Source: Candidatus Omnitrophota bacterium
GTDB lineage: Bacteria; Omnitrophota; Gorgyraeia; Zapsychrales; Zapsychraceae
Assembly (NCBI GenBank): GCA_020632515.1
Contig: JACKFK010000004.1
Coordinates: forward strand, 192,068 to 256,067
Direction of reading: 5' to 3'
Length of the DNA stretch: 64,000 bases
Shown here: positions 20,676 through 58,501 of the stretch, in pieces
Layout of the letters: each line of letters starts with the position of its first letter
Position numbering within the stretch: position 1 is the stretch's first letter
Notes under the pieces: generated by a model
What the model was told of the DNA's origin: nothing
Databases searched by the model: none
Seen by the model: the letters and a program-made list of their open reading frames with translations, nothing else
Made by a program: the position numbers and the translations under genes

Positions 20676-20880
20676 GTCAATAAGTTGCTAGAACAAGTCA
20701 CAAAGTCACAAAGTCAGCTATCAGTCATCAGCGTTCAGCTATCAGAAAGTATAGTCTCCTGTCGCCAGGATACAGTGACCAGTGAAAAAGTTACAAAGCC
20801 ACAAAGTCGCAGATATTTTGTAATCTAGCAACTTTATGACACGGTGACTTTGCAACATTGTGACTTTATAACTTTTAAAT
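20676..20880 (+). repeat. intergenic repeat mosaic S1 (contains empty IS target site)
   Basis: Contains TAAGTTGCTAGAA (20681-20693), 2 x GTCACAAA (20697-20712) and 5 x CAGNNNT heptamers (20715-20749). Also contains hairpin GTCTCCTGTCGCCAGGATAC (20754-20773) and inverted GTGAC boxes up to the ATG. Confidence 0.9.
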
Positions 20881-22098
20881 ATGAATAAAACATTACAACA
20901 ACTTTATCAGTATGTGAAACAGGAAAATTTTTCCGGCTGGGATCCTTTTGACGGTTTAAACAGCGTTTATTTTAAGGAAAGCTTTTTTTATAAAAGTGAA
21001 TTTTTGCGTTTGTGCTGGATTCAACTTTTTAAACAGTCTCCTTTGAATTTACGTTCTGCCTTGAAGGTGCCGAAAAGTTTAAATCCTAAAGGGGCAGCGT
21101 TATTTCTTTCCGGATTAGTAAATTTGCATGAAGCCACGGCTGAACAACACTATTTAACAGACGCGCAAGAGCTATTTCAACAATTGATACGTTTGCAGCT
21201 TAACACGAAAACAGGTATTGGCTGGGGGTATAATTTTGATTGGCAGGCAAAGGCTTTTTTTGTGCCCGAAGGCACGGCTAATGTGGTGACAACAGTTTTT
21301 GTGGGGCAGGCATTGCTGGATTATTGGAAATGGGCGGATCAAAAGCAACGTGAGGAAATTAAAAATATCATTTTGGGTGTGGTTAATTTTATCTATAATG
21401 AAATGATCATTTGGCAAACAGAGAGCCAGTTATGTTTTGCCTATATACCGCAGAAAAAAACAGAAGTCCATAACGCGAATCTAATGACGGCTGCTTTTTT
21501 AGCGCGGGTGTTGACTTTTTCAGATATTAAAAAGAGTATCCCGCTTGATTTAAAGGCTCTTATAATTAAAGCGGTAGAATTTTCGACGGAAGATATTGAC
21601 GATGATGGGTATTGGCCGTATGGCACCATGGATCATCATCGGTGGATGGATAATTTTCATACAGCTTTTAATCTGCAGGCATTACTGCAAATAAAAGATT
21701 CTTTAAAATTAACAGATTATGATAATACGATTGAACAAGTCTATCATTATTACATTTGGGAACTTTTTTTAGAAGATAGCCGGCCTAAATATTATCATAA
21801 TAAATTATTTCCGGTGGATATTCACACCATCGCTGAAGCGATTATTTTGTTAACACAAGTATTGTCAAAAAAATATAACAATCGTGATGGAGAAAATATT
21901 TTTACCCAGCAGAATATCTCTCAATCTAAGGAATTGCTAAAGAATTTACAACAATATGTGGAAGATGAATTTTTTAATGAGCAGGGATATTTTTATTATC
22001 AGCAAGGTAAGTATTTAAAAAACAAAATTCCTTATATGCGCTGGAGCCAGGCGTGGATGTTTAAAGCGCTGGCGGTGCGAGAAAAGAGACAGGCTTAG
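20881..22098 (+). CDS. hypothetical protein, probably alpha/alpha-barrel glycan-modifying enzyme
   Basis: No catalytic motif recognised. Aromatic-rich helical repeats (GIGWGYNFDWQ, DDDGYWPYG, HRWMDNFHTAF) resemble (alpha/alpha)6 epimerase/lyase-like proteins found in polysaccharide loci. Confidence 0.35.
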   Translation: MNKTLQQLYQYVKQENFSGWDPFDGLNSVYFKESFFYKSEFLRLCWIQLFKQSPLNLRSALKVPKSLNPKGAALFLSGLVNLHEATAEQHYLTDAQELFQQLIRLQLNTKTGIGWGYNFDWQAKAFFVPEGTANVVTTVFVGQALLDYWKWADQKQREEIKNIILGVVNFIYNEMIIWQTESQLCFAYIPQKKTEVHNANLMTAAFLARVLTFSDIKKSIPLDLKALIIKAVEFSTEDIDDDGYWPYGTMDHHRWMDNFHTAFNLQALLQIKDSLKLTDYDNTIEQVYHYYIWELFLEDSRPKYYHNKLFPVDIHTIAEAIILLTQVLSKKYNNRDGENIFTQQNISQSKELLKNLQQYVEDEFFNEQGYFYYQQGKYLKNKIPYMRWSQAWMFKALAVREKRQA

Positions 22099-22299
22099 CT
22101 TTCAGATATCAGCTATCAGAAAGAAGTCGTAACAGCTGATGACTGACAGCTGCGAAGCCAATAACTGATATGGTGACTTTGTGGCTAGAGTATTAGATTT
22201 GTATTGATGTGATCTTGCGACTTTCTGAAAGCTGACAGCTGACAGCTAAGAATCGGATAACTAACACGGTGACCTGGCAACTTTGTAACTTTTATTATT
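22099..22299 (+). repeat. intergenic repeat mosaic S2
   Basis: CAGNNNT heptamers, a degenerate GTGAC-box unit (GGTGACTTTGTGGCTAGAGTATTAGATTTG...), CTGACAG inverse heptamers and AAGAATCGGATAACTAACACGGTGAC. Confidence 0.85.
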
Positions 22300-23061: not shown

Positions 23062-23303
23062 AAGTCACATTGTTACCAGGTCACAAGGTCACCGTGTCCG
23101 AGCGGAAAATTAGCATTACAACTTTGTGACTAGAGCGTTAGATTTGTTTTGCTGTGACCTTGTAATTTTCTGATCGCTGAACGCTGACAGCTGAAATCTA
23201 AGAACCGGATAACTGACGTTGTGACATTGTGGCTAAAGCCTCGGATTTGTTTTACTGTAACATTGTGACTTTTAGAAATACATAATTTATTAAAGAGGAC
23301 AAT
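23062..23303 (+). repeat. intergenic repeat mosaic S3
   Basis: GTCACA boxes, two degenerate GTGAC-box units (…TAGAGCGTTAGATTTG…, …AAGCCTCGGATTTG…), and CTGAACGCTGACAGCTGAAATCTAAGAACCGGATAACTGAC. Confidence 0.85.
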
Positions 23304-24539: not shown

Positions 24540-24575
24540 AGAAAATAATTGAGAGTGAGTTGACGGTCAGTAAGA

Positions 24576-24836
24576 ATGCTTAAGGATGCTTGTGAAAAGA
24601 AATTGTTTGATGGAGAGTTAACATGTAAAGTCTTATTGCCAGAAGATATAATCGGTTTAAAAGTTCAAGCGATGATAAATGATCCACAGCGGCAAAAACA
24701 AGAAATGTTAGACATTGAGAGTTTATTAACGCTTGAGAATTACAGCGTTAATTGGAAAAAACTAGAAGAATATTTTCAGCTTTTTGAACTAACGGATGAT
24801 TTTAATATGTTAAAAAAGAGATACCAGAATGCTTAA
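24576..24836 (+). CDS. small hypothetical protein (possible C-terminal fragment of a nucleotidyltransferase-fold TA protein)
   Basis: IIGLKVQAMINDPQRQKQEMLDIESLL resembles the helical C-terminal part of NTase-fold proteins. It has an 8-nt overlap with the next small ORF. Confidence 0.3.
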   Translation: MLKDACEKKLFDGELTCKVLLPEDIIGLKVQAMINDPQRQKQEMLDIESLLTLENYSVNWKKLEEYFQLFELTDDFNMLKKRYQNA

Positions 24837-25050
24837 AGATTCTGAAAAAAAAGAAATGCTTAGACTGGCTGCGGCGGACAGTTTACGGTCGGATTTTCGC
24901 GAGCTTATTAAACGTAGACCGAAAGTATCAACAGACGCAAATACCGTGGACCTGGACTGTGTTATTAATTTTTTTAATATAGTTAATGCTTTTTGTAATC
25001 ATCAAAGAAAACCATTCCGCCGGATTATTGATAAAAATATGAAAATGTAA
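24829..25050 (+). CDS. small hypothetical protein
   Basis: The ORF is translationally coupled (ATGCTTAA overlap) to 24576..24836. No recognisable motif. Confidence 0.25.
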   Translation: MLKDSEKKEMLRLAAADSLRSDFRELIKRRPKVSTDANTVDLDCVINFFNIVNAFCNHQRKPFRRIIDKNMKM

Positions 25051-25101
25051 GATGTTTTTAAAATTGAAATAAGAACTGCTTTAATTAGTTGAAAGGAACA
25101 A

Positions 25102-26250: not shown

Positions 26251-26483
26251 TAAGTCAGAAACAAGTCATAAGGTCACAATGTCACAATGTCACAATGTCA
26301 CAAAGAGGCTAAGTCACAAGGTCATAAAGCTTCCGTTTTCTTTTTTTCTGGTCACCAGCGACTGGAGACCGGAGACTGATACACGGTGGCTTTGTGACAA
26401 AAGTTTCAGATATGCGCTGGTGTGACGTTGTGACTTTTACACGGTGACTTGGTGACTATTAGCTATCAGTCATCAGCCTTCAG
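26251..26483 (+). repeat. intergenic repeat mosaic S4a (left of IS copy 1)
   Basis: GTGGTAA/GTGATAA heptamers start inside the wecB 3' end (26240-26260). Eight phased 8-mers occupy 26265-26328. These are followed by the AAGCTTCCGTTTTCTTTTTTTCTGGTCACCAGCGACTGGAGAC module, one GTGAC-box unit and CAGNNNT heptamers. Confidence 0.9.
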
Positions 26484-26568
26484 TTAAAATGAATAATTGT
26501 GTCCTCCCATCCTAGGAGTTAACCTAGGATGAGAAAGAATAATAACCCAAAAAAGGAGGACACAAGTT

Positions 26569-27600
26569 ATGATAACAATCGGCGTTGATTTTCACAAGCA
26601 AACATCAAGTTACCATGTTTTAGATGAAAACGGAAAATTTCTTAAACGTTGTAAACTAAAAAATAATGAAGAAAATATCCGTAAATTTATTCAAAGTTTT
26701 CAAGGCCCAAAACAAGTCGCTATGGAAGCCACTCGTAATTGGGGAATATTTTTCGAATGTATCAAAGATTTAGTTGACGATTTTCAATTAGGACATCCTA
26801 AGAAAATGAAAGCCATAACAGACTCTGAAACAAAGAACGACAAGCATGACGCTCAAATGATTGCCAAACTAACTTACAGTAAGTTTTTACCTAAGGCTCA
26901 TGTAAGTCATTTAGACAATCGCCAATTACGAAGCCTTTTACGCTATCGTCATTTTCTTGTTAAGCAACGCCGCGCGATTCGTCAACAAGTTCAAACGTTA
27001 ATTGATCGTAATCTCTGGCCGTGTGATCGTCCCAAAGCGTTCAAAGATATCTTTTGTAAAAAAGGCATTCAATGGTTAAAAAGCATTACATTACATGAAA
27101 GAGAACGATTCATTCTCGATCAAGCATTAGAATCTTTTGAAGACTTAAGTCGGCGCATTCTTCAAATCGAAGATTACGTTAATCAACAAACAGCTGAACT
27201 TAAAGGCTTAGAATATTTACGAACAACGCCCGGCTTTAAAACAAGCCGTGTTAACGCCTATATTGTCTTATTAGAAACCGATGACATTCATCGTTTTCGT
27301 AAAGCGAACGGCTTTGCTCATTACGCCGGCTTAGTTCCACGTGAACATTCTTCAGGTTCAAAACAACGTCACGGCCGATTAGTTAAAAATGCTAATATGC
27401 ATTTAAGAACCGCTTTTATTGAATCAACTTTAGCCGCTATTCGTTTAGACAAAGGTCTTAAAAGTTATTACAAGAAAGTTAAAAAATCCAGCGGATCTGG
27501 CTCCGCCATCATTGCCTGTGCCCGTAAATTATCTTATGCTGTTTATCATGTTTTAAAAGATCAACGCCCTTATCGGGCTGAATCACCTGTAGCCGCCTGA
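26569..27600 (+). CDS. IS110-family (DEDD / IS116-IS110-IS902) transposase
   Basis: N-terminal ITIGVDFHKQ (DEDD RuvC-like). C-terminal YAGLVPREHSSGSKQRHGRLVKNANMHLRTAF. RBS AAAGGAGG. Confidence 0.92.
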   Translation: MITIGVDFHKQTSSYHVLDENGKFLKRCKLKNNEENIRKFIQSFQGPKQVAMEATRNWGIFFECIKDLVDDFQLGHPKKMKAITDSETKNDKHDAQMIAKLTYSKFLPKAHVSHLDNRQLRSLLRYRHFLVKQRRAIRQQVQTLIDRNLWPCDRPKAFKDIFCKKGIQWLKSITLHERERFILDQALESFEDLSRRILQIEDYVNQQTAELKGLEYLRTTPGFKTSRVNAYIVLLETDDIHRFRKANGFAHYAGLVPREHSSGSKQRHGRLVKNANMHLRTAFIESTLAAIRLDKGLKSYYKKVKKSSGSGSAIIACARKLSYAVYHVLKDQRPYRAESPVAA

Positions 27601-27780
27601 TAGCTGCCGCCTGTTTGCTTTTGCAATCGAGGTCTCTCTCAGTTTCGCGGTACTTGGTGATCAATTTTATTTTGAGTGTCTTTTTGACGACTCCAATACT
27701 AGCTTATTCACATTTTTTTGTAGTGACTTTGCGTTCTTTAAACATTTTTTTCGAACTATTGACACAATTATTCATACTAG
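27601..27780 (+). ncRNA. candidate transposon-encoded guide RNA region (bridge/seek-RNA-like), copy 1
   Basis: A 180-nt non-coding tail lies 3' of the transposase, versus only 85 nt at the 5' end. Internal ATACTAGCT (27696-27704) equals the right junction (27774-27782). Internal GCGTTCTTTAAACAT (27731-27745) resembles the left junction GCNTTCAGTTAAAATG. Confidence 0.35.
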
Positions 27781-28077
27781 CTATCAGAAAGTATAGTCTC
27801 CTGTCGCCAGGATACAGTGACCAGTACTGGTTGCTGAAGACTTGAGACTAGCGACTGATACCAACAACTGACACGGTGACATTGTGACAAGAGTTTCAGA
27901 TATGCGCTGGTGTGACATTGTGACTTTTACACGGTGACATTGCAACATTGGTTAAACCATAAACAAACCTCGGAGGTTTGTTTACGGTTATGAATCGGAC
28001 AGCTAACACGGTGACATTGTGACAAAAGTTTCAGATTTGAGCTGTTGTGACTTTTAAACTGATAACGAAAGGTTTTC
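27781..28077 (+). repeat. intergenic repeat mosaic S4b (right of IS copy 1)
   Basis: Rest of the heptamer module, hairpin GTCTCCTGTCGCCAGGATAC, the CCAGTACTGG palindrome, two GTGAC-box units and the 31-nt palindrome. Confidence 0.9.
27957..27987 (+). repeat. 31-nt palindromic hairpin element, copy a
   Basis: CCATAAACAAACCTC-G-GAGGTTTGTTTACGG (one A/C mismatch). Confidence 0.85.
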
Positions 28078-28677
28078 ATGAACGAAAACATTATCCCTCA
28101 TGAAGCAATTATTAAAAAACAAGACCGCTGGAGACTGAATCAGCATAAATCTGTTATCCTTTGGTTTACCGGGTTATCCGGATCCGGAAAATCCACCTTA
28201 TCGCATAAGTTAGAAGCAGCTTTGTATGAACGCGGTGTACGCACGTATGTTCTTGACGGCGATAATGTCCGTAAGGGCATGAATAAAGATTTAGGGTTTG
28301 CCCCGGAAGACCGCAAAGAAAATATCCGTCGTATCGGCGAGATGACCAAGCTTTTTATGGACTGCGGCATCATTATGATGACGGCGTTTATTTCTCCTTA
28401 CCGTGAAGACCGGGCCATGGTGCGTTCGTTGGTGGAGAAGAGTGAATTTGTGGAAGTTTATATGAAATGTTCCGTGGATGTTTGCGAGCGTCGTGATGTC
28501 AAAGGTCTTTACAAAAAAGCCCGTGCCGGTGAGATTAAGAATTTTACCGGAATCAGCGCGCCTTACGAAGAACCGCAAAATCCGGAAATTGTCATCGAAT
28601 CCGATGCAATGACCCTGGACGAAAGCGTTGCAAAGATCGTTCAGTATTTGGAAGAAAAAGGGTGCTTGAAGTGCTAA
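28078..28677 (+). CDS. cysC: adenylylsulfate (APS) kinase
   Basis: VILWFTGLSGSGKSTLS P-loop and YVLDGDNVRKGMNKDLGFAPEDRKENIRRIGE. Confidence 0.95.
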   Translation: MNENIIPHEAIIKKQDRWRLNQHKSVILWFTGLSGSGKSTLSHKLEAALYERGVRTYVLDGDNVRKGMNKDLGFAPEDRKENIRRIGEMTKLFMDCGIIMMTAFISPYREDRAMVRSLVEKSEFVEVYMKCSVDVCERRDVKGLYKKARAGEIKNFTGISAPYEEPQNPEIVIESDAMTLDESVAKIVQYLEEKGCLKC

Positions 28678-28888
28678 GTGATAAGTGGTAAGTGGTAAGT
28701 GGTAAGTCTGAAACAAGTCACAAAGTCGCAAAGTCACAAGGTCACAAGGTCATCGTGTCAGCTATCAGCTTTCAGCGATCAGAAAAAAATATACTCTCCG
28801 GCCGCCAGGAGTCAGTGCTGTTGAGCAGCAACCGATTCAACTTCGTAAGTTGAACTAGGTTTGCTTTGATAAAATAAAGAAATTAATA
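28678..28888 (+). repeat. intergenic repeat mosaic S5
   Basis: The heptamer array GTGCTAA GTGATAA GTGGTAA x3 (28671-28705) includes the cysC stop. Then four 8-mers (28717-28748), CAGNNNT heptamers, a degenerate CCAGGAG hairpin and the CGATTCAACTT hairpin. Confidence 0.9.
28830..28862 (+). repeat. 33-nt hairpin motif, copy 1
   Basis: AACCGATTCAACTTCGTAAGTTGAACTAGGTTT (stem TCAACTT/AAGTTGA). Confidence 0.85.
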
Positions 28889-29188
28889 ATGTCAATACGT
28901 TTGGAAAGTTTAAAACAATTAAAGGATTTAATTTTATTGAATTTAAAAGATGAGTCGATAAAAGTTTTTCTGTTTGGATCCAGCGCCCGAGAAGATTATG
29001 AAAATGGTTCGGATATTGATATTGGATTATTACCCAAAGAGTCGGTGAATGAAAATATAATAACAATTCTTAAAGAAAAAATTGAACATTTAAATATTCC
29101 TTACAAAGTTGAACTTGTTAATTTTAGGGAAACAAGTGAAGAGTTTGTTAATGATGCGATGAAAGACGCGGTGATATGGAAAGATTAA
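28889..29188 (+). CDS. mntA: minimal nucleotidyltransferase (MNT-type antitoxin)
   Basis: NTase motif LFGSSAREDYENGSDIDIGLL. Overlaps the downstream HEPN gene. Confidence 0.8.
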   Translation: MSIRLESLKQLKDLILLNLKDESIKVFLFGSSAREDYENGSDIDIGLLPKESVNENIITILKEKIEHLNIPYKVELVNFRETSEEFVNDAMKDAVIWKD

Positions 29189-29556: not shown

Positions 29557-29771
29557 GTTGCTCGTTGCTAGAAAAAGTCACAAGGTCACAAAGTCACAAA
29601 GTCACAAGGTCATAAAGCTTCCGTTTTCTTTTTTTCTGGTCACCAGCGACTGGAGACTGGAGACTGATACACGGTGGCTTGGTGACACAAGTTTCAGATT
29701 TGAGTTGTTTTGACGTTGTGACTTTTACACGATGACTTGGTGACTATTAGCTATCAGTCATCAGCATTCAG
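29557..29771 (+). repeat. intergenic repeat mosaic S6a (left of IS copy 2)
   Basis: TAAGTTGCT(CGTTGCT)AGAAAAA, five 8-mers (29577-29616), the AAGCTTCCG...GGTCACCAGCGACTGGAGAC module, one GTGAC-box unit and heptamers. Confidence 0.9.
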
Positions 29772-29856
29772 TTAAAATGAATAATTGTGTCCTCCCATCC
29801 TAGGAGTTAACCTAGGATGAGAAAGAATAATAACCCAAAAAAGGAGGACACAAGTT

Positions 29857-30888
29857 ATGATAACAATCGGCGTTGATTTTCACAAGCAAACATCAAGTTA
29901 CCATGTTTTAGATGAAAACGGAAAATTTCTTAAACGTTGTAAACTAAAAAATAATGAAGAAAATATCCGTAAATTTATTCAAAGTTTTCAAGGCCCAAAA
30001 CAAGTCGCTATGGAAGCCACTCGTAATTGGGGAATATTTTTCGAATGTATCAAAGATTTAGTTGACGATTTTCAATTAGGACATCCTAAGAAAATGAAAG
30101 CCATAACAGACTCTGAAACAAAGAACGACAAGCATGACGCTCAAATGATTGCCAAACTAACTTACAGTAAGTTTTTACCTAAGGCTCATGTAAGTCATTT
30201 AGACAATCGCCAATTACGAAGCCTTTTACGCTATCGTCATTTTCTTGTTAAGCAACGCCGCGCGATTCGTCAACAAGTTCAAACGTTAATTGATCGTAAT
30301 CTCTGGCCGTGTGATCGTCCCAAAGCGTTCAAAGATATCTTTTGTAAAAAAGGCATTCAATGGTTAAAAAGCATTACATTACATGAAAGAGAACGATTCA
30401 TTCTCGATCAAGCATTAGAATCTTTTGAAGACTTAAGTCGGCGCATTCTTCAAATCGAAGATTACGTTAATCAACAAACAGCTGAACTTAAAGGCTTAGA
30501 ATATTTACGAACAACGCCCGGCTTTAAAACAAGCCGTGTTAACGCCTATATTGTCTTATTAGAAACCGATGACATTCATCGTTTTCGTAAAGCGAACGGC
30601 TTTGCTCATTACGCCGGCTTAGTTCCACGTGAACATTCTTCAGGTTCAAAACAACGTCACGGCCGATTAGTTAAAAATGCTAATATGCATTTAAGAACCG
30701 CTTTTATTGAATCAACTTTAGCCGCTATTCGTTTAGACAAAGGTCTTAAAAGTTATTACAAGAAAGTTAAAAAATCCAGCGGATCTGGCTCCGCCATCAT
30801 TGCCTGTGCCCGTAAATTATCTTATGCTGTTTATCATGTTTTAAAAGATCAACGCCCTTATCGGGCTGAATCACCTGTAGCCGCCTGA
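29857..30888 (+). CDS. IS110-family transposase (identical 343-aa product)
   Basis: Same translation as 26569..27600. Confidence 0.92.
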   Translation: MITIGVDFHKQTSSYHVLDENGKFLKRCKLKNNEENIRKFIQSFQGPKQVAMEATRNWGIFFECIKDLVDDFQLGHPKKMKAITDSETKNDKHDAQMIAKLTYSKFLPKAHVSHLDNRQLRSLLRYRHFLVKQRRAIRQQVQTLIDRNLWPCDRPKAFKDIFCKKGIQWLKSITLHERERFILDQALESFEDLSRRILQIEDYVNQQTAELKGLEYLRTTPGFKTSRVNAYIVLLETDDIHRFRKANGFAHYAGLVPREHSSGSKQRHGRLVKNANMHLRTAFIESTLAAIRLDKGLKSYYKKVKKSSGSGSAIIACARKLSYAVYHVLKDQRPYRAESPVAA

Positions 30889-31068
30889 TAGCTGCCGCCT
30901 GTTTGCTTTTGCAATCGAGGTCTCTCTCAGTTTCGCGGTACTTGGTGATCAATTTTATTTTGAGTGTCTTTTTGACGACTCCAATACTAGCTTATTCACA
31001 TTTTTTTGTAGTGACTTTGCGTTCTTTAAACATTTTTTTCGAACTATTGACACAATTATTCATACTAG
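30889..31068 (+). ncRNA. candidate transposon-encoded guide RNA region, copy 2
   Basis: Identical to 27601-27780. Confidence 0.35.
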
Positions 31069-31302
31069 CTATCAGAAAGTATAGTCTCCTGTCGCCAGGA
31101 GACAGTGACCAGTACTGGTTGCTGGAAACTTGAGACTAGCGACTGATACCAACAACTGACACGGTGACATTGTGACAAGAGTTTCAGATATGCGCTGATG
31201 TGACGTTGTGACTTTTACACGGTGACTTTGTGACACAAGTTTCAGATTTGGGTTGTTGTGACATTGTGACTTGTCGATAGCTAAGAACCGGATAACGGAC
31301 TT
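31069..31302 (+). repeat. intergenic repeat mosaic S6b
   Basis: Heptamer remainder, hairpin GTCTCCTGTCGCCAGGAGAC, CCAGTACTGG, two tandem GTGAC-box units and CGATAGCTAAGAACCGGATAAC. Confidence 0.9.
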
Positions 31303-32103: not shown

Positions 32104-32326
32104 GTGCTGTTGTAGCGATCAGCCATCAAATGTCACAAGGTCACAAGGTCACAAAGTCGCAAAGTCGCAAAGTCGCAAAGTCGCAAAGTCACAAAGTCGC
32201 AAAGATACCAAGTCACAATGTCACAAAGTCATAAAGCTTCCGTTTTCTTTTTTTCTGGTCACCAGCGACTGGAGACTGATACACGGTGACATTGTGACTT
32301 TCTGAAAGCTGTCAACCGACACAACC
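32104..32326 (+). repeat. intergenic repeat mosaic S7 with longest octamer array
   Basis: Thirteen phased 8-mers occupy 32132-32235 (GTCACAAG x2, GTCACAAA, GTCGCAAA x4, ...). Then the AAGCTTCCG...GGTCACCAGCGACTGGAGAC module. Confidence 0.92.
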
Positions 32327-32355
32327 TTGACAATGTGGATATATGGTATTATAGT
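32327..32355 (+). promoter_or_regulatory. sigma70-type promoter of AAA+ ATPase 1
   Basis: TTGACA-17 nt-TATAGT. The GTG at 32335 used by the ORF track lies inside the spacer. Confidence 0.65.
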
Positions 32356-32391
32356 TATACTGCAAATGATATATATGAAATTATGGTAAAC

Positions 32392-33696
32392 ATGATTATT
32401 CAACGTGATATTATACACAAAATTAAACCTTTTTTAGAGCGCAGGGAATGTTTAGCCCTTATCGGCCCGCGGCAGACAGGAAAAACTACTCTTTTACAGC
32501 TAATTACAGACTATTTATATAAAGAAAAAAATGTTGATAAGGAATTGGTAAAGAGGATCAGTTTTGAAGACCGGAAACTGTTGTTTCAATTTGAAAAAGA
32601 TCCTTGTGAATTTGTTAGATCTTATTGGCCGGGGGCTGCCAAGCAAACGTTTTACTTTATGATTGATGAGTTTCAATACGCCAGCGAAGGTGGACAAAAG
32701 TTAAAACTGATTTATGACACCTTTACCAATCTTAAGCTATTGATTACAGGATCATCATCTCTGGATCTGCGGGCGCAGGTGGGAAAATATATGGTAGGAC
32801 GGATATTGAGTTTTTATATTTATCCGTTTAATTTTCATGAAATCTTAAAAACGAGGTCTTCTCGTTTAGAACGCGCTTACGCACGGCAAAACAAACAAAT
32901 TAAAAATTGGCTCTTTGAAAATCAACCCCTGGATTTGAAAAAAGGTGATGATTTGTTACACGAGGAAATGACAAAAGCCTTTGAAGATTACTGTGTTTGG
33001 GGCGGGTACCCGCAAATTGTCCTTACAGAAGATATTGAACAAAGAAAGAAAGTTTTAAATGATCTTTATAACAATTATCTTTTAAAAGACATTAAAACAT
33101 CATTAGAGTTGGCCACAGAAAAAGAGCTTTATAAACTTTCGCAATATATCGCGACACAGGTAGGACAGATTACGGTTTATCAGAATTTATCTCAGGCCTC
33201 AGGGCTTGAGTACCGGACTTTAAAAAAGCATTTATCGATTTTAGAAGAAACATTTATTATTAAAAGTGTAACGCCGTTTTTCAGAAATAAACAGAAAGAG
33301 CTGTCGCGGAATCCTAAAATATTTTTCTTGGATATGGGGTTTCGCAACGCGCTTATCGACGATATCAATGATCTGGAAAAAAGGCCCGATGCCGGGAACA
33401 TGGTGGAAAATACGGTATATGTACAGCTTTTAAAAAACTTTATACAGGCTGATAAATTAAATTTTTACCGGACTAAAATGGGCTCAGAAATTGATTTTAT
33501 CACATGGAATAACCACGCCATTATTCCAATGGAAGTTAAATATAAAGTTTTTAAACAAGAGCAGATTTCTAAAGGATTTCGTAGTTTTATTGAGCAGTTT
33601 AAGCCGGAGAAGGCCATTGTTTGGACAAAGAACTTCTGGGGGATGCTCGAAGAAAATGGAACGCAGATTTTGTTTGCACCGGGGTATTATTGTTAA
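32392..33696 (+). CDS. AAA+ ATPase, COG1373 type (AAA_14 + DUF4143), paralog 1
   Basis: Walker A GPRQTGKTTLLQ and Walker B FYFMIDEFQY. The start was moved to ATG 32392 (32383 is also possible) because of the upstream promoter. Confidence 0.8.
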   Translation: MIIQRDIIHKIKPFLERRECLALIGPRQTGKTTLLQLITDYLYKEKNVDKELVKRISFEDRKLLFQFEKDPCEFVRSYWPGAAKQTFYFMIDEFQYASEGGQKLKLIYDTFTNLKLLITGSSSLDLRAQVGKYMVGRILSFYIYPFNFHEILKTRSSRLERAYARQNKQIKNWLFENQPLDLKKGDDLLHEEMTKAFEDYCVWGGYPQIVLTEDIEQRKKVLNDLYNNYLLKDIKTSLELATEKELYKLSQYIATQVGQITVYQNLSQASGLEYRTLKKHLSILEETFIIKSVTPFFRNKQKELSRNPKIFFLDMGFRNALIDDINDLEKRPDAGNMVENTVYVQLLKNFIQADKLNFYRTKMGSEIDFITWNNHAIIPMEVKYKVFKQEQISKGFRSFIEQFKPEKAIVWTKNFWGMLEENGTQILFAPGYYC

Positions 33697-34078
33697 GTTG
33701 CTAGAAAAGATCGCAAAGTGACCTTGTGACTTTCTGAAAGTTGACGACTGAAAGTGAAAGCTAAGAGTCGGACAACTGACACGGTGCCATTGTGACAAAA
33801 GTTTCAGATTTGAGTTGTTTTGACGCTGTGGCTTTTACACGGTGACTTTGTGACACAAGTTTCAGATTTGGGTTGTTGTGACATTGTGACTTGTCGATAG
33901 CTAAGAACCGGATAACTGACACGGTGCCATTGTGACAAGAGTTTCAGATTTGAGCTGTTGTGACCTTGTGACTTGTTGACAGCTGACATCTGAATTGATT
34001 AAAACCGTAAACAAACCTCCGAGGTTTGTTTGTGGTTAAGAACCGGATAACTGACAATTCGACATTTCAGATTGTTAT
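33697..34078 (+). repeat. intergenic repeat mosaic S8
   Basis: TAAGTTGCTAGAAAA at the stop and inverse heptamers. Three 58-nt GTGAC-box units at 33779-33836, 33837-33894 and 33919-33976. The 31-nt palindrome is also present. Confidence 0.92.
34005..34035 (+). repeat. 31-nt palindromic hairpin element, copy b
   Basis: CCGTAAACAAACCTC-C-GAGGTTTGTTTGTGG. The two non-Watson-Crick positions are G.U-compatible on the + strand only. Confidence 0.85.
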
Positions 34079-34107
34079 TTGACAAAATGACTATCATACT
34101 GTATAAT
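34079..34107 (+). promoter_or_regulatory. consensus sigma70-type promoter of AAA+ ATPase 2
   Basis: TTGACA-17 nt-TATAAT, both hexamers perfect. Confidence 0.75.
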
Positions 34108-34150
34108 TACTTTATAAAATGATATTATTTATTGAGGATAAGGGGCAGAA

Positions 34151-35350
34151 ATGATTGATTTTAAGGCCATCTTTGAATATGACCGTTTAGCCAAAGAAGA
34201 AGGAAAGAAATATCAGAAACGACGATTTTTTTATAATGAAATCGTGCAAACGCAGGGAAAACATTTCACTGGTATTCTGGGTGCCCGCGGAGTAGGTAAA
34301 ACAATTTTATTAAAACAGCTGGCTTGTGAACAGCCGCAGTCACTTTATGTTTCTCTGGATGCGGTTGATGTTGATCTTTTTGAACTGGCTAAGAAAGCCA
34401 AAGAAGAGTTTAAGATTCAATCGCTGTTGCTGGATGAGGTGCACTTTCATCCGCGATTCCAGGAAAATCTGAAGAAAATTTATGATTTTTTGGATATTCA
34501 AGTAATTTTTACCAGCTCTATTGCCTTAGCGTTAATTGAATCGCAATATGATCTTTCACGAAGGGTTTTGTTAAAGAAGTTATATCCGTTTTCATTTCGT
34601 GAATATCTTTATTTTAAATATGACGTGGAATTTCCTTCGCTGACATTTGATCAGATTATTCAAAAGGAAGTAGATTCAAAATTCTTTTCCTACAGTCAGA
34701 ATTTTAGTGATTATCTGCAAGGAGGTATTTTCCCTTTTGCCATTGAAGAACCGTTTGTTTTGGATTTGCTTAAGAATGTGGCTGCTAAAGTTATTCGTAA
34801 AGATATTCCCCGCGTCACTGATATCAGTGTATCGGAAATTGAAATTATCGAAAAAGTGCTTCAGTTTATCGGAACATCCGGGATTGATGGAATTAATTAT
34901 TCATCGATCTCACAGAACTGCGGCATTACTAAATATAAAGCGCAGCAATATGTCGAGTTGTTAGAAAAAGCGTTTATTATTCATCAGATTTTTCCTAAAG
35001 GAACAAATGTGCTGAAAGAGCCGAAGATTTTAATGGCTGTTCCCTATCGCTTGCTTTACACGGATTTTCAAAGGGCTTTAGGAGGATTAAGAGAAGATTT
35101 TCTTGTGGAAATGATGCGTTCTTTGGGGAAAGAAATTTATTATTTGAAATCAACCCGCGGCCAAAAAACACCGGATTATTTGTTAACACATCAACAGAAG
35201 AATGTTGTTGTTGAAGTCGGGGGAAAAGGAAAAGGCCGACAGCAGTTTAAAGGGATTGTGCCTGACCAGAAAATCATCGCTGCCGACGCGGTAACATTTG
35301 ATGAATTGCGCCGTCCGTTATTTTTGTTTGGATTTTTAAGTGATAAATAA
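34151..35350 (+). CDS. AAA+ ATPase, COG1373 type, paralog 2
   Basis: Walker A GARGVGKTILLKQ, Walker B LLLDEVHF, and LYPFSFREYL as in the other paralogs. Confidence 0.75.
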   Translation: MIDFKAIFEYDRLAKEEGKKYQKRRFFYNEIVQTQGKHFTGILGARGVGKTILLKQLACEQPQSLYVSLDAVDVDLFELAKKAKEEFKIQSLLLDEVHFHPRFQENLKKIYDFLDIQVIFTSSIALALIESQYDLSRRVLLKKLYPFSFREYLYFKYDVEFPSLTFDQIIQKEVDSKFFSYSQNFSDYLQGGIFPFAIEEPFVLDLLKNVAAKVIRKDIPRVTDISVSEIEIIEKVLQFIGTSGIDGINYSSISQNCGITKYKAQQYVELLEKAFIIHQIFPKGTNVLKEPKILMAVPYRLLYTDFQRALGGLREDFLVEMMRSLGKEIYYLKSTRGQKTPDYLLTHQQKNVVVEVGGKGKGRQQFKGIVPDQKIIAADAVTFDELRRPLFLFGFLSDK

Positions 35351-35648
35351 GTCTCCTGTCGCCAGGAGACAGTGATCAGTAAGAAACAACCGATTCAACT
35401 TCGTAAGTTGAACTAGGTTTACTTGTGACTTTCTGAAATCTGACAGCTGAAAGCTAAGAACCGGATAACTGACACGGTGACATTGTGACAAGAGTTTCAG
35501 ATTTGAGTTGTTTTGACGTTGTGACTTTTACACGGTGACTTGGTGACACAAGTTTCAGATTTGAGCTGTTGTGACTTTTTGACAGCTACGCACCGGATAA
35601 CTGACACAGTGACATTGTGACTTTTGTACGAAACATGAAAGGATTTTT
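35351..35648 (+). repeat. intergenic repeat mosaic S9
   Basis: Hairpin GTCTCCTGTCGCCAGGAGAC (35351-35370), the 33-nt hairpin, inverse heptamers and two tandem GTGAC-box units, ending in GTGACATTGTGAC just before the gmd RBS. Confidence 0.9.
35388..35420 (+). repeat. 33-nt hairpin motif, copy 2
   Basis: AACCGATTCAACTTCGTAAGTTGAACTAGGTTT, identical to copy 1. Confidence 0.85.
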
Positions 35649-36737: not shown

Positions 36738-36850
36738 AAGTCGCAAAGTCACCGTGTCAGCTTTCAGCTATCAGTCTTCAGCGATCAGAAAACCACAAAC
36801 AAACCTCCGAGGTTTGTTTGTGGTTAAGAACCGAATAACTGACTTACTAT
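36738..36850 (+). repeat. intergenic repeat mosaic S10
   Basis: GTCGCAAAGTCAC, CAGNNNT heptamers, the 31-nt palindrome and TTAAGAACCGAATAACTGAC. Confidence 0.9.
36793..36823 (+). repeat. 31-nt palindromic hairpin element, copy c
   Basis: CCACAAACAAACCT-CCG-AGGTTTGTTTGTGG, a perfect 14-bp stem. Confidence 0.85.
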
Positions 36851-37894: not shown

Positions 37895-37898
37895 GAGT

Positions 37899-37931
37899 AA
37901 CCGATTCAACTTCGTAAGTTGAACTAGGTTT
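37899..37931 (+). repeat. 33-nt hairpin motif, copy 3 (mosaic S11)
   Basis: AACCGATTCAACTTCGTAAGTTGAACTAGGTTT lies 4 nt after the fcl stop. Confidence 0.85.
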
Positions 37932-37939
37932 GCGCTTAG

Positions 37940-37968
37940 TTGACATGTCGTATAAAATAATGTATATT
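37940..37968 (+). promoter_or_regulatory. sigma70-type promoter of AAA+ ATPase 3 (leaderless or near-leaderless mRNA)
   Basis: TTGACA-17 nt-TATATT. The -10 box ends 5 nt before ATG 37974 and 8 nt before ATG 37977. Confidence 0.65.
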
Positions 37969-37973
37969 TTACG

Positions 37974-39233: not shown

Positions 39234-39565
39234 TATTTCAGTCTTCGGTCGCCAGGAGAGATCAAGTCGCAAAGTCGCAAAGTCACAAGGTCACAAGGTC
39301 ACAAGGTCACAAGGTCACAAAGTTTCCAGATTTCAAATACGGTGGCTTTGTGACTATCAGCCATCAGCGTTCAGCTATCAGCTATCAGAAGAAAAAAATC
39401 TGATCGCTGAAATCTGAAAGCTGACGACTGAAAGCTAAGAGCTGGATAAGTGACATGGTGACATTGTGACTTTTTCACGGTGACTTTGTGACTAGAGGAT
39501 TAGATTTGGATTGATGTGACTTTGTGACTTGTTGAAAGCTAGGAGTCGGATAACTGACTTTACCC
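39234..39565 (+). repeat. intergenic repeat mosaic S12
   Basis: Degenerate CCAGGAGAG hairpin and seven 8-mers (39266-39321). A heptamer array holds a second intact IS-target-like site (CATCAGCGTTCAG|CTATCAG, junction 39374/39375). An A-rich centre is followed by inverse heptamers and a GTGAC-box unit. Confidence 0.9.
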
Positions 39566-39594
39566 TTGTCTAATGAGCGTTAATAGTGTATAAT
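39566..39594 (+). promoter_or_regulatory. sigma70-type promoter of abiEi-abiEii
   Basis: TTGTCT-17 nt-TATAAT. Confidence 0.6.
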
Positions 39595-39602
39595 TTCAGT
39601 AT

Positions 39603-39621
39603 ACTGTCAAAATATGACAGT
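39603..39621. promoter_or_regulatory. palindromic operator candidate (AbiEi autoregulation)
   Basis: ACTGTCA-aaata-TGACAGT lies just downstream of the -10 box. A further TGACAG half-site is at 39644-39649. Confidence 0.45.
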
Positions 39622-39634
39622 TTTATGAAAAAAT

Positions 39635-40267
39635 ATGAAAGTTTTGACAGAGCTAATTTTAGATAATTATAAAAGTGATATTCTAACCACTGCAGATGTG
39701 GTCACTTTGTCTAAAGGGTCTTCGGATCGACGTTACGGTCTGGTTAAGCGGGCTTTGGCGGCAGAGGAGATTATCCAAATTCGAAGAGGCCTGTACTATT
39801 TAGCAAAGAAGTATCAGCGTGGGCCAATGAATTTGTTTGCTTTAGCCCAGAGAATCTATGGACCGTCATATATTAGTTTTGAATCGGCTTTATCGTATCA
39901 TGGCTGGATTCCGGAGGCTGTTTATCTTACGGCGAGTGCCAGTATTCGTAAAGCAATAAGATACACAACCCCGTTAGGGATTTTTGATTATAAGCGGATT
40001 CCTTGCGCAGATTTTTTCTATGAGGTTAATCGGATTCAAAATGAAGCAGAGGATATTTTTTTTATGGCTTCACCGATTAGAGCTTTGGTTGACTATATTT
40101 ATGTTTATAAAAAAGATTGGCCGGATTTAAAGGCTATTGCGCAAGACTTGAGAATTGAACCGGAAAATTTTAATGAAATTAAAAAAGAAGCATTGCAAGG
40201 TTTTAAGGAAAATTTTAAAAGCCGCAGAGTTAAACGGTTTATTAAGATGCTGGAAGGGAACGTTTGA
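39635..40267 (+). CDS. abiEi: AbiEi-family antitoxin / transcriptional regulator
   Basis: N-terminal wHTH-like LTTADVVTLSKGSSDRRYGLVKRALAAEEIIQIRRGLYYL. Overlaps the downstream AbiEii gene by 4 nt. Confidence 0.75.
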   Translation: MKVLTELILDNYKSDILTTADVVTLSKGSSDRRYGLVKRALAAEEIIQIRRGLYYLAKKYQRGPMNLFALAQRIYGPSYISFESALSYHGWIPEAVYLTASASIRKAIRYTTPLGIFDYKRIPCADFFYEVNRIQNEAEDIFFMASPIRALVDYIYVYKKDWPDLKAIAQDLRIEPENFNEIKKEALQGFKENFKSRRVKRFIKMLEGNV

Positions 40268-41133
40268 GCGTCAAAATTATTCAAGAACGTTTAAATCTTT
40301 ATCAATGCGCTTCCGTGCAGGAAGAAGCTCAAGCTTTACGGGAAATAACCCAGGAAGTAGCATTGGCTGCGCTCGCGCGAACGGATTTTTTTAAGTATGC
40401 AGCGTTTCATGGAGGAACCTGTTTGCGGATTCTTTACGGGCTTAACCGGTTTTCAGAAGATCTAGATTTTACGCTAAAGCAGCCTGACAACGGTTTTCAA
40501 GTTGAATCATATATTAGTAATTTAGCTGTTGAATTTAAAGCTTTTGGTTTTGAGTTGGAGGTGATCGATCGTTCAGAAGCAGAACTTCCCGTAAAAAAAG
40601 TATTTCTAAAGGATAATTCAATCGGGAAAGTATTAAAATTAAAACATTTAAAAAGTGACCGCTCGGAAAAGAAGATCAAGATTAAACTAGAGATTGATAC
40701 TAATCCGCCGGATCATGCCGGATACGAAAGTAAAATGGTTGATTTCCCTTTTATTTTTTCACTTACGGCATTGGATCGAAGTAGTTTATTTGCCGGTAAG
40801 ATCCATGCGCTGCTTTCACGGATTTATGTTAAAGGACGTGATTGGTATGATTTTCTGTGGTATCTCCGTAATAAAGATTTCATCAATCTTAAATATCTGT
40901 CCAGTGCTTTAGATCAGCAGGGGCCATGGCAGGGACAGAAATTAACGGTTGATCAGAATTGGGTTGTAGAAGCGTTGACGGAAAAAATCAAAAATCTGGA
41001 TTGGGATAATGCGATTAAAGATGTGCTTAAATTTATTAAACCGTTAGAAGTTAAATCTGTGGAGCTGTGGAATAAAGAGCTGTTTTTAGCACAGTTAGAG
41101 AAATATCTAAAAGAGAAAAAAGATCACAACTGA
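40264..41133 (+). CDS. abiEii: AbiEii/AbiGii-family nucleotidyltransferase toxin
   Basis: FHGGTCLRILYGLNRFSEDLDF NTase motif. TTG start overlaps the abiEi stop. Confidence 0.85.
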   Translation: MSVKIIQERLNLYQCASVQEEAQALREITQEVALAALARTDFFKYAAFHGGTCLRILYGLNRFSEDLDFTLKQPDNGFQVESYISNLAVEFKAFGFELEVIDRSEAELPVKKVFLKDNSIGKVLKLKHLKSDRSEKKIKIKLEIDTNPPDHAGYESKMVDFPFIFSLTALDRSSLFAGKIHALLSRIYVKGRDWYDFLWYLRNKDFINLKYLSSALDQQGPWQGQKLTVDQNWVVEALTEKIKNLDWDNAIKDVLKFIKPLEVKSVELWNKELFLAQLEKYLKEKKDHN

Positions 41134-41773
41134 CAATACGGTGGCTTTGTGACTATCAGCCATCAGCGTTCAGTCATCAGCCATCAGAAGAAAAAAATCT
41201 GATCGCTGAAATCTGAAGACTGAAAGCTAAGAGCCGGGCAACTGATGCGGCGACATTGTGACTTTCTGAAAGCTGACGACTGAAAGCTGAAAGCTACACG
41301 CCGGATAACTGACACAGTGACTTTTAATCCTTTTTTAACCATCTCTTAATGTAAGGTTTGATAGGGTAATTGGTTGCCTGGACAAACCCGGACAGTCTGG
41401 GTTAGATATATTGATCTTTAAAGTAATTATGATATTATTTATCGTCGAGAAACAAAAGGGGGGCCAGTACTGGTCACTGGAGACTTGAGACTGGCGACTG
41501 ACAATACGGTGACCTTGTGATCTTGTGACTTTTTGACGCACCGGACAACTGACATAGTGACGTTGCGACATTGTGACTTTATGACAACTAATAGAAATTA
41601 TTTAAAGGTAGTTTAACACAATAAGAATTAATTAGAGTTAACAGTTTGAGATAAATAAAAGTAAAAAGAGTTAATTCAAATTAAGTTAAACCAATTTGTA
41701 GATTAAATTGATGAGGATAAGAAATTAGAGACAGACACGGTGACTTTGCAACATTGTGACCTTGTGACTTGTT
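41134..41773 (+). repeat. intergenic repeat mosaic S13 plus unique AT-rich segments (largest gap, 640 bp)
   Basis: Contains heptamer/inverse-heptamer palindrome, GTGAC boxes and a CCAGTACTGG module. Unique segments are 41335-41460 and an AT-rich stretch at 41580-41745 with 4 x AGTT(T)AAY. The minus-strand ORF 41335..41571 runs through repeats and is not believed. Confidence 0.85.
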
Positions 41774-43443: not shown

Positions 43444-43491
43444 TGAAGGTAAAGGAAATTTAGATTGATTTAATATTAAAAAATAAATTTT

Positions 43492-58469: not shown

Positions 58470-58501
58470 AACCGATCCAACTTCCGAAGTTGAACTAGGT
58501 C
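58470..58501 (+). repeat. 33-nt hairpin motif, copy 4 (variant)
   Basis: AACCGATCCAACTTCCGAAGTTGAACTAGGTC lies between convergent genes. Its CTA (58495-58497) is the stop codon of the minus-strand DUF2442 gene. Confidence 0.8.

Follow-up and report, generated by a model that had tools for sequence, protein, structure and literature searches.

The intergenic DNA of a 21-kb zone (20676-41773) within a large exopolysaccharide (EPS) gene cluster of a Candidatus Omnitrophota metagenome-assembled genome (MAG) is built from one small vocabulary of tandem words, longer units, and hairpins. The 64,000-nt stretch of DNA analysed here is referred to as the window. A Pfam scan of its open reading frames (ORFs) identified the cluster, which lies on the + strand; the proteins correspond to MCB9747010-MCB9747043 (locus tags H6755_; 10 proteins matched exactly), and the MAG was obtained from activated-sludge plants. 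That the zone is a local pile-up of a modular intergenic repeat family dispersed in this genome is well supported. From the sequence we infer, with a probability of about 0.5, that the spacers act as co-transcribed intercistronic hairpins of the repetitive extragenic palindromic (REP)/bacterial interspersed mosaic element (BIME) or short tandemly repeated repetitive (STRR) kind, and also serve as landing pads for an insertion sequence (IS).

Between 20.7 and 41.8 kb, the repeat-built DNA forms 15 gap segments. They cover 4,054 nt (19% of the zone) when both IS copies are left out; a preliminary description of this DNA had estimated about 4.1 kb. The vocabulary consists of octamers (GTCACAAN/NTTGTGAC), heptamers (CAGNNNT/CTGANNN), GTGRTAA, a 58-nt unit, a linker, and three hairpins. 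The commonest unit in the zone is the octamer, not the heptamer. Motifs were counted on the + strand of the zone, where the long + strand ORFs were taken as coding. The coding/non-coding counts were 0/35 for GTCRCAA, 0/42 for TTGYGAC, 1/27 for CAGNNNTCAG, 2/21 for CTGANNNCTG, 1/17 for ACACGGTG, 0/11 for AGTTTCAGAT, and 0/9 for GGAYAACTGA. The vocabulary is restricted to intergenic DNA, as had been claimed (0-2 coding versus 9-42 non-coding occurrences per motif). The other three zones of the window contain 0-3 of each motif, all coding or singletons. In-phase heptamers number 28 for CAGNNNT (27 of them in gaps) and 23 for CTGANNN, in addition to the GTGRTAA arrays. The 58-nt unit (U58) follows the plan ACACGGTGAC-NTT-GTGAC-...-GTGAC-NTT-GTGAC-TTTT; 11 copies of the AGTTTCAGAT type and 3 copies of a TTAGATTTG subtype (U58b) were found, in agreement with the earlier figure of about 15. 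The linker (GCTAAGAACCGGATAACTGAC), which contains one TAACTGA, occurs in 13 copies. The three hairpin families reported earlier are also present, as palindromes of 26-35 nt (in the zone, H1 in five copies, H2 and H3 in three each).

The words are strictly phased. The window contains 16 direct repeats GTCAC-N3-GTCAC and 22 of GTGAC-N3-GTGAC; spacings from 0 to 7 were checked, and no direct repeats of either pentamer were found at spacings 0-2 or 4-7. The mixed pairs GTGAC-N3-GTCAC and GTCAC-N3-GTGAC are absent from the window and from a second Omnitrophota locus with these arrays (L015). The longest octamer array identified by Tandem Repeats Finder, of 13.6 units, stands in gap 7 (Table 1). 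Identical sequences are present in independent contigs of ENA and Logan assemblies; the repeats are therefore not an artefact of a single assembly.

The repeats begin at or in the stop codon of one gene, and from a few to about 37 nt separate their end from the start codon that follows. Most of the repeat spacers are too tight for a promoter. A complete gap, best represented by 39234-39634, runs in the order stop codon, (GTCACAAN)n, (CAGNNNT)n, A-rich centre, (CTGANNN)n, linker, right octamers or 58-nt units, and ribosome-binding site (RBS). The earlier description of one gene, or one toxin-antitoxin pair, per repeat-bounded unit was supported. It had also held that every gap of the zone is repeat-built, which stands for the 15 segments and fails for 24540-25101, where two small ORFs take the place of the repeat vocabulary. 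The TAAGTTGCTAGAA module trails three genes unrelated to one another, and the epimerase and APS kinase genes have their stop codons inside GTGRTAA arrays. Stop codons of unrelated genes lie inside these shared modules at 20672, 26245, 28672, 29553, and 33692, and the modules appear to supply or overlap gene ends.

The two arms of a gap are not equivalent. The distal half had been described as the reverse complement of the proximal half; the gaps are indeed palindromes, but the variable eighth base of the octamer differs between the arms (G/A/T = 13/17/4 in left arms; A/G/T/C = 17/11/8/6 in right arms). The right arms therefore do not simply complement the left ones, and the stems would consist of about 7-bp blocks with a mismatch roughly every eighth position. 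The rule that GTCAC follows the stop and GTGAC precedes the start, on which most of the claimed polarity relied, is uninformative by itself, because a sequence followed by its own reverse complement reads alike on both strands. The polarity of the asymmetric modules was confirmed: the copies of H1, H2, the linker, and U58/U58b in the window are on the gene strand in 37 of 37 cases. With every window gene on the + strand, this count alone cannot tell whether the modules are oriented by the gene or by replication. Elsewhere in the species, a reversed U58 (L060) and reversed linkers (L062, L065) on other contigs stand directly upstream of reverse-strand genes, and the orientation of the modules therefore follows the gene. 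The linker (...GGATAACTGAC) is forward in 13 of 13 copies; it stands in the half of the gap nearer the start, usually 20-150 nt from the ATG.

Folding analysis showed that 10 of the 15 gap segments have z < -2, compared with 1 of 13 coding controls of 200 nt. Gap 12, folded as RNA, has a minimum free energy of -143 kcal/mol (z -7.8). Four of the five poorly folding gaps (28678, 32104, 35351, and 37895) adjoin accessory genes and resemble palindromes cut in half. Upon in silico excision of the ATPase gene at 32335-33696, 75 bp formed across the junction, with a gain of 42 kcal/mol over the separate halves; the excision makes the 13-unit left array of gap 7 pair with the right-arm units beyond the gene, in gap 8.

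Accessory genes are interspersed among the biosynthetic genes of the zone. The three AAA_14/DUF4143 ATPase genes and the AbiE pair lie between left-arm and right-arm modules; the MNT/HEPN pair has left-type modules on both sides. Near-consensus sigma-70-type sites were predicted just upstream of four accessory genes, the three ATPase genes and abiEi (34079, TTGACA-17-TATAAT, 12/12; 32327; 37940; and 39566). No promoter site of at least 10/12 was found directly upstream of the sugar-nucleotide, sulfation, and glycosyltransferase genes that are preceded by repeats. At wecG, the cysK-type APS kinase gene, cysQ, gmd, and the epimerase gene at 41774, the right-arm modules run directly to the RBS. 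In our reading, an operon with intercistronic palindromes was invaded, and the invading genes now stand between the palindrome halves.

Some further observations touch the accessory genes. The hairpin H2 (AACCGATTCAACTTCGTAAGTTGAACTAGGTT and variants) adjoins four AAA_14/DUF4143 ATPase genes and the MNT/HEPN pair (also 28830, 35388, 37899), and might be an insertion scar or attachment site of the accessory genes. As a correction to the earlier description, H2 also occurs outside the zone (58470, 63710; degenerate near 59190 and 60455); the degenerate copies flank a reverse-strand AAA_14/DUF4143 ATPase gene (59218-60399). Another MNT/HEPN pair lies within the pur operon of a different Omnitrophota genome, between purQ-like and purM-like genes (L071, 8288-9009), and operons in this phylum may often have received such pairs.

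The two IS copies in the zone belong to an IS110/IS1111-type element. Its subterminal inverted repeats (GAATAATTGTGTC / GACACAATTATTC) are IS1111-like, and its 3' non-coding region measures about 180 nt. The transposase was found on 19 other short contigs, 10 of which were read; together with the two window copies, these give 12 copies at at least 7 distinct sites. All 12 (window, L060-L069) are inserted at TCAG^CTATCAG in a heptamer array, in one orientation relative to the heptamer. The flanks on the other contigs are other combinations of the same modules. The insertion sites differ between metagenomes and are thus polymorphic. The idea that the repeats are landing pads gained support from these 12 insertions and from the accessory genes between palindrome halves. 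Elements of the IS110 family prefer REP sequences as targets (Tobes & Pareja 2006, PMC1525189; ISPpu9, PMC12288879), and bridge and seek RNAs of this family have been reported (PMC11208160, PMC11187229). The element is likely an RNA-guided recombinase that uses the host heptamer repeat as a safe haven.

Other assemblies of the same species indicate how widely the repeats are dispersed. Several single-gene short-read contigs end in repeats, including those of gmd (1,217 bp, L059), fucose synthase (1,118 bp, L205), and a short-chain dehydrogenase/reductase epimerase (1,023 bp, L206); assembly breaks at repeats are what high copy number produces. The array at 32127-32236 has a different number of units in L061. 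The core of the 58-nt unit gave no match in the metagenome scan, and this unit looks species-specific.

The syntenic pur operon was compared among five other Omnitrophota genomes; the named relatives of the chosen matches were all Omnitrophica. The genome of Omnitrophica WOR_2 RIFCSPHIGHO2_02_FULL_48_11 (L015), with 51% guanine plus cytosine (GC), carries the same GTCAC-N3/GTGAC-N3 arrays after stops and before starts, with 12 phased pairs in 8 kb versus 0.03 expected. GTSAC is absent from the pur operons of L070, L071, and L073, which have hairpins of the same design made from other tandem 7-8-mers; the words found in Omnitrophota pur gaps include GATAAGG/GGTAAGG, AATAACCA, GAAGATA, and GATGGNT. 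L071 also carries CAGNNNT and one copy of H3. The intra-operon gaps, of 69-218 nt, have z < -2 in 22 of 25 cases in L015, L070, L071, and L073, and in 2 of 5 in L072. The gap between purD and purE has a hairpin in four genomes, each made from an unrelated word. With a crude seed-and-extend detector, palindromes with periodic arms were found at 0.015/kb in 399 kb of unrelated genomes versus about 0.10/kb in Omnitrophota loci. The preliminary description regarded the vocabulary as special to the 21-kb zone and as possible insulation of selfish genes; this did not hold, as the repeats are dispersed in the species and the same design is found between housekeeping pur genes. Outside the phylum, intercistronic palindromes with arms of degenerate 7-8-mers were seen in a Clostridia MAG (L018) and in Blastocatellia (L027), with TGAAGAA and TTTTCTA among the words listed. 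In the examples from Omnitrophota and Clostridia, the arm rich in purines precedes the other; L027 has the reverse order, with the pyrimidine-rich arm first.

The GTSAC-N3 word extends well beyond Omnitrophota. JGI metagenomes were scanned for three phased GTCAC followed, after 15-45 nt, by two phased GTGAC, and at least 120 stretches were found versus a chance expectation far below 1. Among the matches listed, GC ranges from 38 to 70%, and the 3-nt spacer tracks GC with pentamer and phase fixed; the spacers are AAA/AAG/AAT in low-GC loci and GCG/GCA/CCG in high-GC loci. In the loci with GC < 0.56 among these matches, 33 of 39 elements flanked by two ORFs lie between co-directional ORFs (17 +, 16 -), with median distances of 11 nt from the preceding ORF and 17 nt to the following one, and 4 of 62 lie inside an ORF. 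One locus (L099) adjoins a protein with a type IX secretion system sorting domain. Another (L107, GC 67%) encodes a phosphoesterase whose best named relatives are from Thermoanaerobaculia and Vicinamibacterales, which indicates an Acidobacteriota-like contig. A scan of genome collections with ACACGGTGACNTTGTGAC gave 56 matches, mostly by chance or in coding DNA; the real non-coding cases are L015, L020, L025, L026, L044, and L054. The candidates L003, L011, L013, L037, L038, and L042 were rejected, as their matches are a conserved oxidoreductase coding motif. Non-coding ...CACACGGTGACATTGTGAC... stands beside further GTSAC units in Prevotella (L025, L026, L054), Bacteroidales (L044), and Lentimicrobiaceae (L020). 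In those Bacteroidota genomes, ...CACACGGTGAC-NTT-GTGAC... is identical to the start of the window 58-nt unit. Arrays were also seen on a few IMG/VR contigs, with the arms in one order or the other. In these and in the Omnitrophota arrays, the 5' arm is rich in purines or A, the 3' arm in pyrimidines or T. A pentamer and phase strictly conserved across phyla, with a free spacer, point to sequence-specific recognition by some factor, or to horizontal spread.

The repeats could not be assigned to a described family, as stated earlier. Rfam gave no match at the gathering score over the whole window (best E = 0.19-0.8 in E-value mode, far below the gathering score); no tRNA or tmRNA was found; and BLAST against plasmid and phage collections gave no match. 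The literature search found no bacterial paper with these words and nothing relevant on Omnitrophota repeats. The earlier analogies, to REP/BIME in role and to STRR in form, were supported. Tandem-repeat intergenic hairpins and REP-like mosaics that attract IS110 elements are known already. The vocabulary itself, the GTSAC-N3 octamer with its cross-phylum spread, and the design in Omnitrophota appear to be undescribed in the sources searched.

In form, the closest parallel is with the STRR heptamers of heterocystous cyanobacteria, reportedly described by Mazel et al. in 1990; structured nif intergenic regions were reportedly described by Jackman and Mulligan in 1995. Like the zone, STRR consist of tandem degenerate 7-nt words in non-coding DNA, are dispersed and strain-variable, and form arrays that, with their complements, can give large stem-loops between genes of one operon. 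The zone differs in its host, which is a member of Omnitrophota and not a heterocystous cyanobacterium, in its dominant word, an 8-mer with a conserved GTSAC core, and in its extra modules (the 58-nt unit, the linker, and the three hairpins). Membership of STRR was rejected: STRR1 CCCCAGT, STRR2 TTGGTCA, and STRR3 CAACAGT do not occur in tandem on either strand. Direct TAACTGA repeats have been described just upstream of starts in Beggiatoaceae, Cyanobacteria, and Bacteroidetes, with a proposed post-transcriptional role (MacGregor 2015, PMC4679880). These share with the zone a heptamer-scale word and a patchy cross-phylum spread that includes Bacteroidetes, and may share a forward orientation near starts; the zone linker contains one TAACTGA. 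However, the BOGUAY TAACTGA repeats are direct and overlap the RBS, whereas the zone words form inverted, hairpin-forming pairs. TAACTGA does not occur in tandem here, and its single copies (12 on the + strand, 6 on the - strand) do not make the zone a member of that family.

In role, the REP/BIME/REPIN (REP doublet forming hairpin) elements are also extragenic palindromes inside transcription units, BIMEs are mosaics of few modules, and REP elements are, like the zone repeats, targets of the IS110 family. According to Liang et al. (2015), REP reportedly stabilises upstream mRNA and affects translation when near the stop codon. The arms of the zone are mostly phased tandem words of 7-8 nt, whereas REP is one palindrome of 20-40 nt; the REP 5'-GTAG signature appears to be absent from the zone. 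Compared with the single conserved REP palindrome, H1-H3 are three families of 26-35 nt with 3-5 copies each in the window and further copies on other contigs. The RNase III hairpins of the phage T7 early operon offer a functional analogy only: there too, one hairpin per spacer splits a polycistronic transcript into single-gene units. The stems of the zone are longer, repetitive, and periodically mismatched.

In the proposed mechanism, the spacers would be transcribed in the operon mRNA and fold into long imperfect hairpins with their feet at the upstream stop codon and the downstream RBS. These hairpins might impede 3' exonucleases, mark sites of processing, or terminate transcription weakly; judged from their sequence, the right arms, many of which end in GTGACTTTT, may cause weak termination. 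By bringing stop and start together, a hairpin could couple or uncouple neighbouring cistrons. The growth of the zone is shown in part. Slippage of units would alter the arrays, and gaps would recombine with one another. The IS110/IS1111-type element specifically targets the heptamer array, and accessory genes with their own predicted promoters, placed between arm modules, split palindromes and inflate gaps. The zone is swollen because IS110 copies and promoter-bearing accessory genes lie inside the palindromes.

Several results weigh against this hairpin mechanism. Terminator-like sites are not enriched (21 versus 17.4 +/- 4.2 expected). Although the sense strand folds better in 11 of the 15 window gaps, this number is confounded by the G+T-rich coding strand, and in an independent metagenome set sense and antisense folding did not differ (18 versus 15). 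Covariation of the spacers in GTSAC elements is not above a GC-matched null in low- and mid-GC loci; an apparent covariation of 0.68 versus 0.48 was discarded, as it vanishes in these classes under that null. Covariation had been put forward as a check on the structures, and in the H2 and H3 alignments RNAalifold showed 0-1 compensated pairs, along with several that are broken. The divergence of the repeat flanks between two strains is 3.1% versus 3.9% at third codon positions (128 nt compared), which is near neutral. Finally, a word of 5-7 nt is strictly conserved across phyla beside a free position, and structure alone does not explain this.

Two rivals keep substantial weight. One, somewhat unlikely in our view, is that the phased words, for example as (GUCACAAN)n or (NUUGUGAC)n in RNA or single-stranded DNA, are sites for a sequence-specific single-strand nucleic-acid-binding protein. 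Such a protein, TRAP-, Csp-, S1-, CsrA-like or other, would govern translation or transcript fate, and the hairpins would be secondary or would mask the sites. GTSAC fixed at a strict 8-nt phase, the drift of the 3-nt spacer with genome GC, the lack of covariation at the free position, and the patchy distribution across phyla all agree with this, and sites spaced at 8 nt would not line up along a single face of a DNA duplex. Directly upstream of the RBS stand the right-arm words and the linker with TAACTGA, forward in 13/13, a placement similar to that in PMC4679880. However, no candidate protein was found, and the words are always paired with inverted complements, which a simple binding array does not require. 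Other Omnitrophota use different words at the same syntenic gap, which implies a factor per word, or none. About as unlikely is a selfish or neutral origin, with REPIN- or MITE-like (miniature inverted-repeat transposable element) units or slippage-prone palindromes that are tolerated and have no host function beyond that of IS targets. The repeats are dispersed, multi-copy, and strain-variable (unit number in L061; polymorphic IS insertions), the strain divergence is near neutral, presence in related genomes is patchy, and covariation is lacking; that unrelated genes end in one module (TAAGTTGCTAG) suggests insertion or recombination of modules at gene ends. Yet the asymmetric modules are strictly gene-oriented (37/37), hairpins persist at the same syntenic gap across genomes despite complete sequence turnover, and variation is concentrated at one octamer position instead of being even. 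The 58-nt units are head-to-tail direct repeats (ACACGGTGAC...GTGACTTTT) without terminal inverted repeats or target-site duplications, and MITEs were rejected on this ground. Among the ORFs of the 64-kb window, Pfam detected no REP-associated tyrosine transposase (RAYT, TnpA_REP), Y1, or other candidate mobilising gene.

Two further explanations are very improbable. An integron-like cassette array, with the genes as mobile cassettes and the palindromic gaps as attC-like recombination sites, is suggested by the co-directional single-gene units, the imperfect palindromes between them, and the interspersed toxin-antitoxin genes, as in the attC/Vibrio cholerae repeat arrays of chromosomal integrons. 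However, no intI integrase or tyrosine recombinase gene was found by Pfam among the ORFs of the window, and the attC core pair (RYYYAAC...GTTRRRY) occurs in 1 of the 15 gap segments, in unique AT-rich sequence. The gaps are modular and vary from 79 to 640 nt instead of having one attC size, the accessory genes have their own predicted promoters, the biosynthetic genes form pathway pairs (gmd/fucose synthase, APS kinase/cysQ, 2-epimerase/WecG), and the same hairpin design occurs between the conserved-order housekeeping pur genes of other Omnitrophota. Equally hard to sustain is action at the DNA level, as cruciforms or nucleoid-organising sites (matS-, BIME-, gyrase-, or IHF-like) instead of RNA elements. 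Both strands fold equally well, the palindromes are symmetric, and the pentamers and 3-nt spacing are those of matS, reportedly GTGACRNYGTCAC (Mercier et al. in 2008). The absence of GTGAC-N3-GTCAC and of its converse from the window and L015 rules out matS itself; to our knowledge, MatP is restricted to some Gammaproteobacteria. Moreover, sites repeated every 8 bp would change face along the duplex from one to the next, the repeats are positioned relative to stop and start codons, and the asymmetric modules are gene-oriented.

Beyond the intercistronic hairpins proposed here, one may speculate, as a rather long shot, that the GTSAC-N3 inverted arrays, and the other words by extension, are horizontally spreading cis elements of "operon punctuation" whose pentamers are read by a conserved factor. 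Acting on single-stranded RNA or DNA, this factor may be an RNA-binding protein that forms oligomers, or else a nuclease or transposase dedicated to these sites. If so, it would control how transcripts are processed, how stable they are, or how translation is coupled at gene boundaries, in Omnitrophota, Bacteroidota, Acidobacteriota, and some phages. The patchiness of GTSAC resembles the unexplained patchiness of TAACTGA and STRR, for which a conserved core with a free spacer offers a sharper handle; with the core fixed, the binding factor or mobilising enzyme could be searched for by phylogenetic profiling. Omnitrophota are abundant, uncultured, ultra-small bacteria, and we know of nothing published on their gene regulation. 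A recurring intercistronic hairpin, seen in four of the five other genomes sampled, would give this phylum its first candidate for operon-level post-transcriptional control. As a specific target of an IS110/IS1111-type element, the repeats would illustrate in nature how a family of RNA-guided recombinases finds safe havens in repeats of its host. The repeats also break short-read assemblies into single-gene contigs, which biases MAG quality for such lineages.

Table 1. Repeat-built gaps, mobile elements, and accessory genes in and around the zone (window positions; promoters are predictions)
Feature	Position	Strand	Composition and remarks
Gap 1	20676..20880	+	TAAGTTGCTAGAA at stop; GTCACAA x2.8 (20695-20716); CAGNNNT x4.6 (20714-20745); H1 20753-20778; degenerate left octamers; right arm ACACGGTGAC..TTGTGAC 20839-20864; ends 17 nt before ATG; fold z = -3.4 and -2.7
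Gap 2	22099..22299	+	CAGNNNT 22097-22119; U58b core 22186-22213; CTGANNN x3.3 (22225-22247); linker 22245-22265; right arm to 12 nt before ATG
Gap 3	23062..23303	+	Left octamers directly after stop; U58b core 23131-23158; CTGANNN x3.7 (23170-23195); linker 23197-23217; second degenerate U58b; RBS
Gap 4 left	26251..26483	+	GTGRTAA over stop; octamers x5.5 (26261-26303); CTTCCG module 26326-26381; 1.5 U58 units 26381-26460; CAGNNNT heptamers split by IS at TCAG^; fold z -6.3
IS110/IS1111-type copy 1	26484..27780 (1,297 bp)	+	Transposase 26569-27600; Pfam DEDD_Tnp_IS110, Transposase_20
Gap 4 right	27781..28077	+	CTATCAG; H1 27795-27820; U58 units 27871-27950; H3 27955-27989; linker-like stretch; partial U58 28006-28056; RBS
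Gap 5, left-type modules only	28669..28888	+	GTGGTAA x5.6 over stop (28669-28707); octamers x4.8 (28715-28752); CAGNNNT x3.6 (28758-28782); H1 28793-28818; H2 28830-28861; then MNT/HEPN pair; fold z = +0.2, i.e. half palindrome
MNT/HEPN toxin-antitoxin pair	28889-29556	+	Pfam
Gap 6 left	29557..29771	+	TAAGTTGCT module; octamers x5.5 (29574-29617); CTTCCG module 29614-29669; 1.5 U58 units; heptamers split by IS copy 2
IS110/IS1111-type copy 2	29772..31068	+	Identical to copy 1; transposase 29857-30888; target and orientation as copy 1
Gap 6 right	31069..31302	+	H1 31083-31108; U58 x2 (31159-31272); linker 31280-31300; cysQ start
Gap 7, mostly left arm	32104..32334	+	GTCRCAAN x13.6 (32127-32236); CTTCCG module 32233-32288; one right unit; sigma-70-like promoter 32327-32355 for AAA_14/DUF4143 ATPase
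Three AAA_14/DUF4143 ATPases	starts 32335, 34151, 37974	+
Gap 8, right-arm modules	33697..34150	+	TAAGTTGCTAG at stop; CTGANNN; linker x3 (33760, 33900, 34035); U58 x3 (33779-33976); H3 34003-34037; 12/12 sigma-70-like promoter 34079-34107 for second ATPase
Gap 9, right-type modules	35351..35648	+	H1 35350-35375; H2 35388-35419; CTGANNN 35433-35455; linker 35453-35473; U58 x2 (35472-35583); linker 35585-35605; right unit; RBS of gmd
Gap 10	36738..36850	+	Octamer; GTCACCGTGTCAG; CAGNNNT x3.7 (36757-36782); H3 36791-36825; linker 36823-36843; also present in second strain (L059)
Gap 11	37895..37973	+	H2 37899-37930; sigma-70-like promoter 37940-37968 for third ATPase
Gap 12, most complete nested palindrome	39234..39634	+	H1-like hairpin; octamers x7.5 (39264-39323); CAGNNNT x5 (39354-39388); A-rich centre; CTGANNN 39395-39444; linker; right octamers 39450-39493; U58b; linker 39538-39558; promoter 39566-39594 for abiEi
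AbiEi/AbiEii toxin-antitoxin pair	39635-41133	+
Gap 13	41134..41773	+	Nested palindrome 41136-41320; about 140 nt unique; right-arm octamers 41504-41586; AT-rich unique stretch; right octamers 41735-41773 adjoining ATG
H2 outside zone	58470..58501	+	Second copy 63710-63741; degenerate copies near 59190 and 60455

The cluster as a whole encodes a sugar transferase, a Wza-like exporter, a tyrosine autokinase, flippases, Wzy-like polymerases, and many glycosyltransferases, as well as WecG, UDP-GlcNAc 2-epimerase, APS kinase, CysQ, GDP-mannose dehydratase, and GDP-fucose synthase. Within the zone, the two small ORFs at 24576-25050 (86 and 73 amino acids) overlap, both begin with MLKD..., and have no Pfam match; they may be another small accessory or toxin-antitoxin-like pair. 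The gaps outside the zone are 3-143 nt long and lack the repeat vocabulary. The sole exception in length is a gap of 826 nt between the genes of a DRL-type oxidoreductase and a flippase, which contains 3.1 copies of a 205-bp unit at 99% identity (6341-6974). Within this unit lie a 21-nt repeat and a short hairpin; the unit bears no relation to the octamer and heptamer vocabulary. The region 43000-53000 has a GC of 27-32% versus about 38% elsewhere, and its gaps are tight and without repeats. Its genes encode a second Wzx flippase, an asparagine-synthase-like protein, a Wzy-like polymerase, and several GT4 glycosyltransferases, and this low-GC island looks like a polysaccharide module acquired horizontally.

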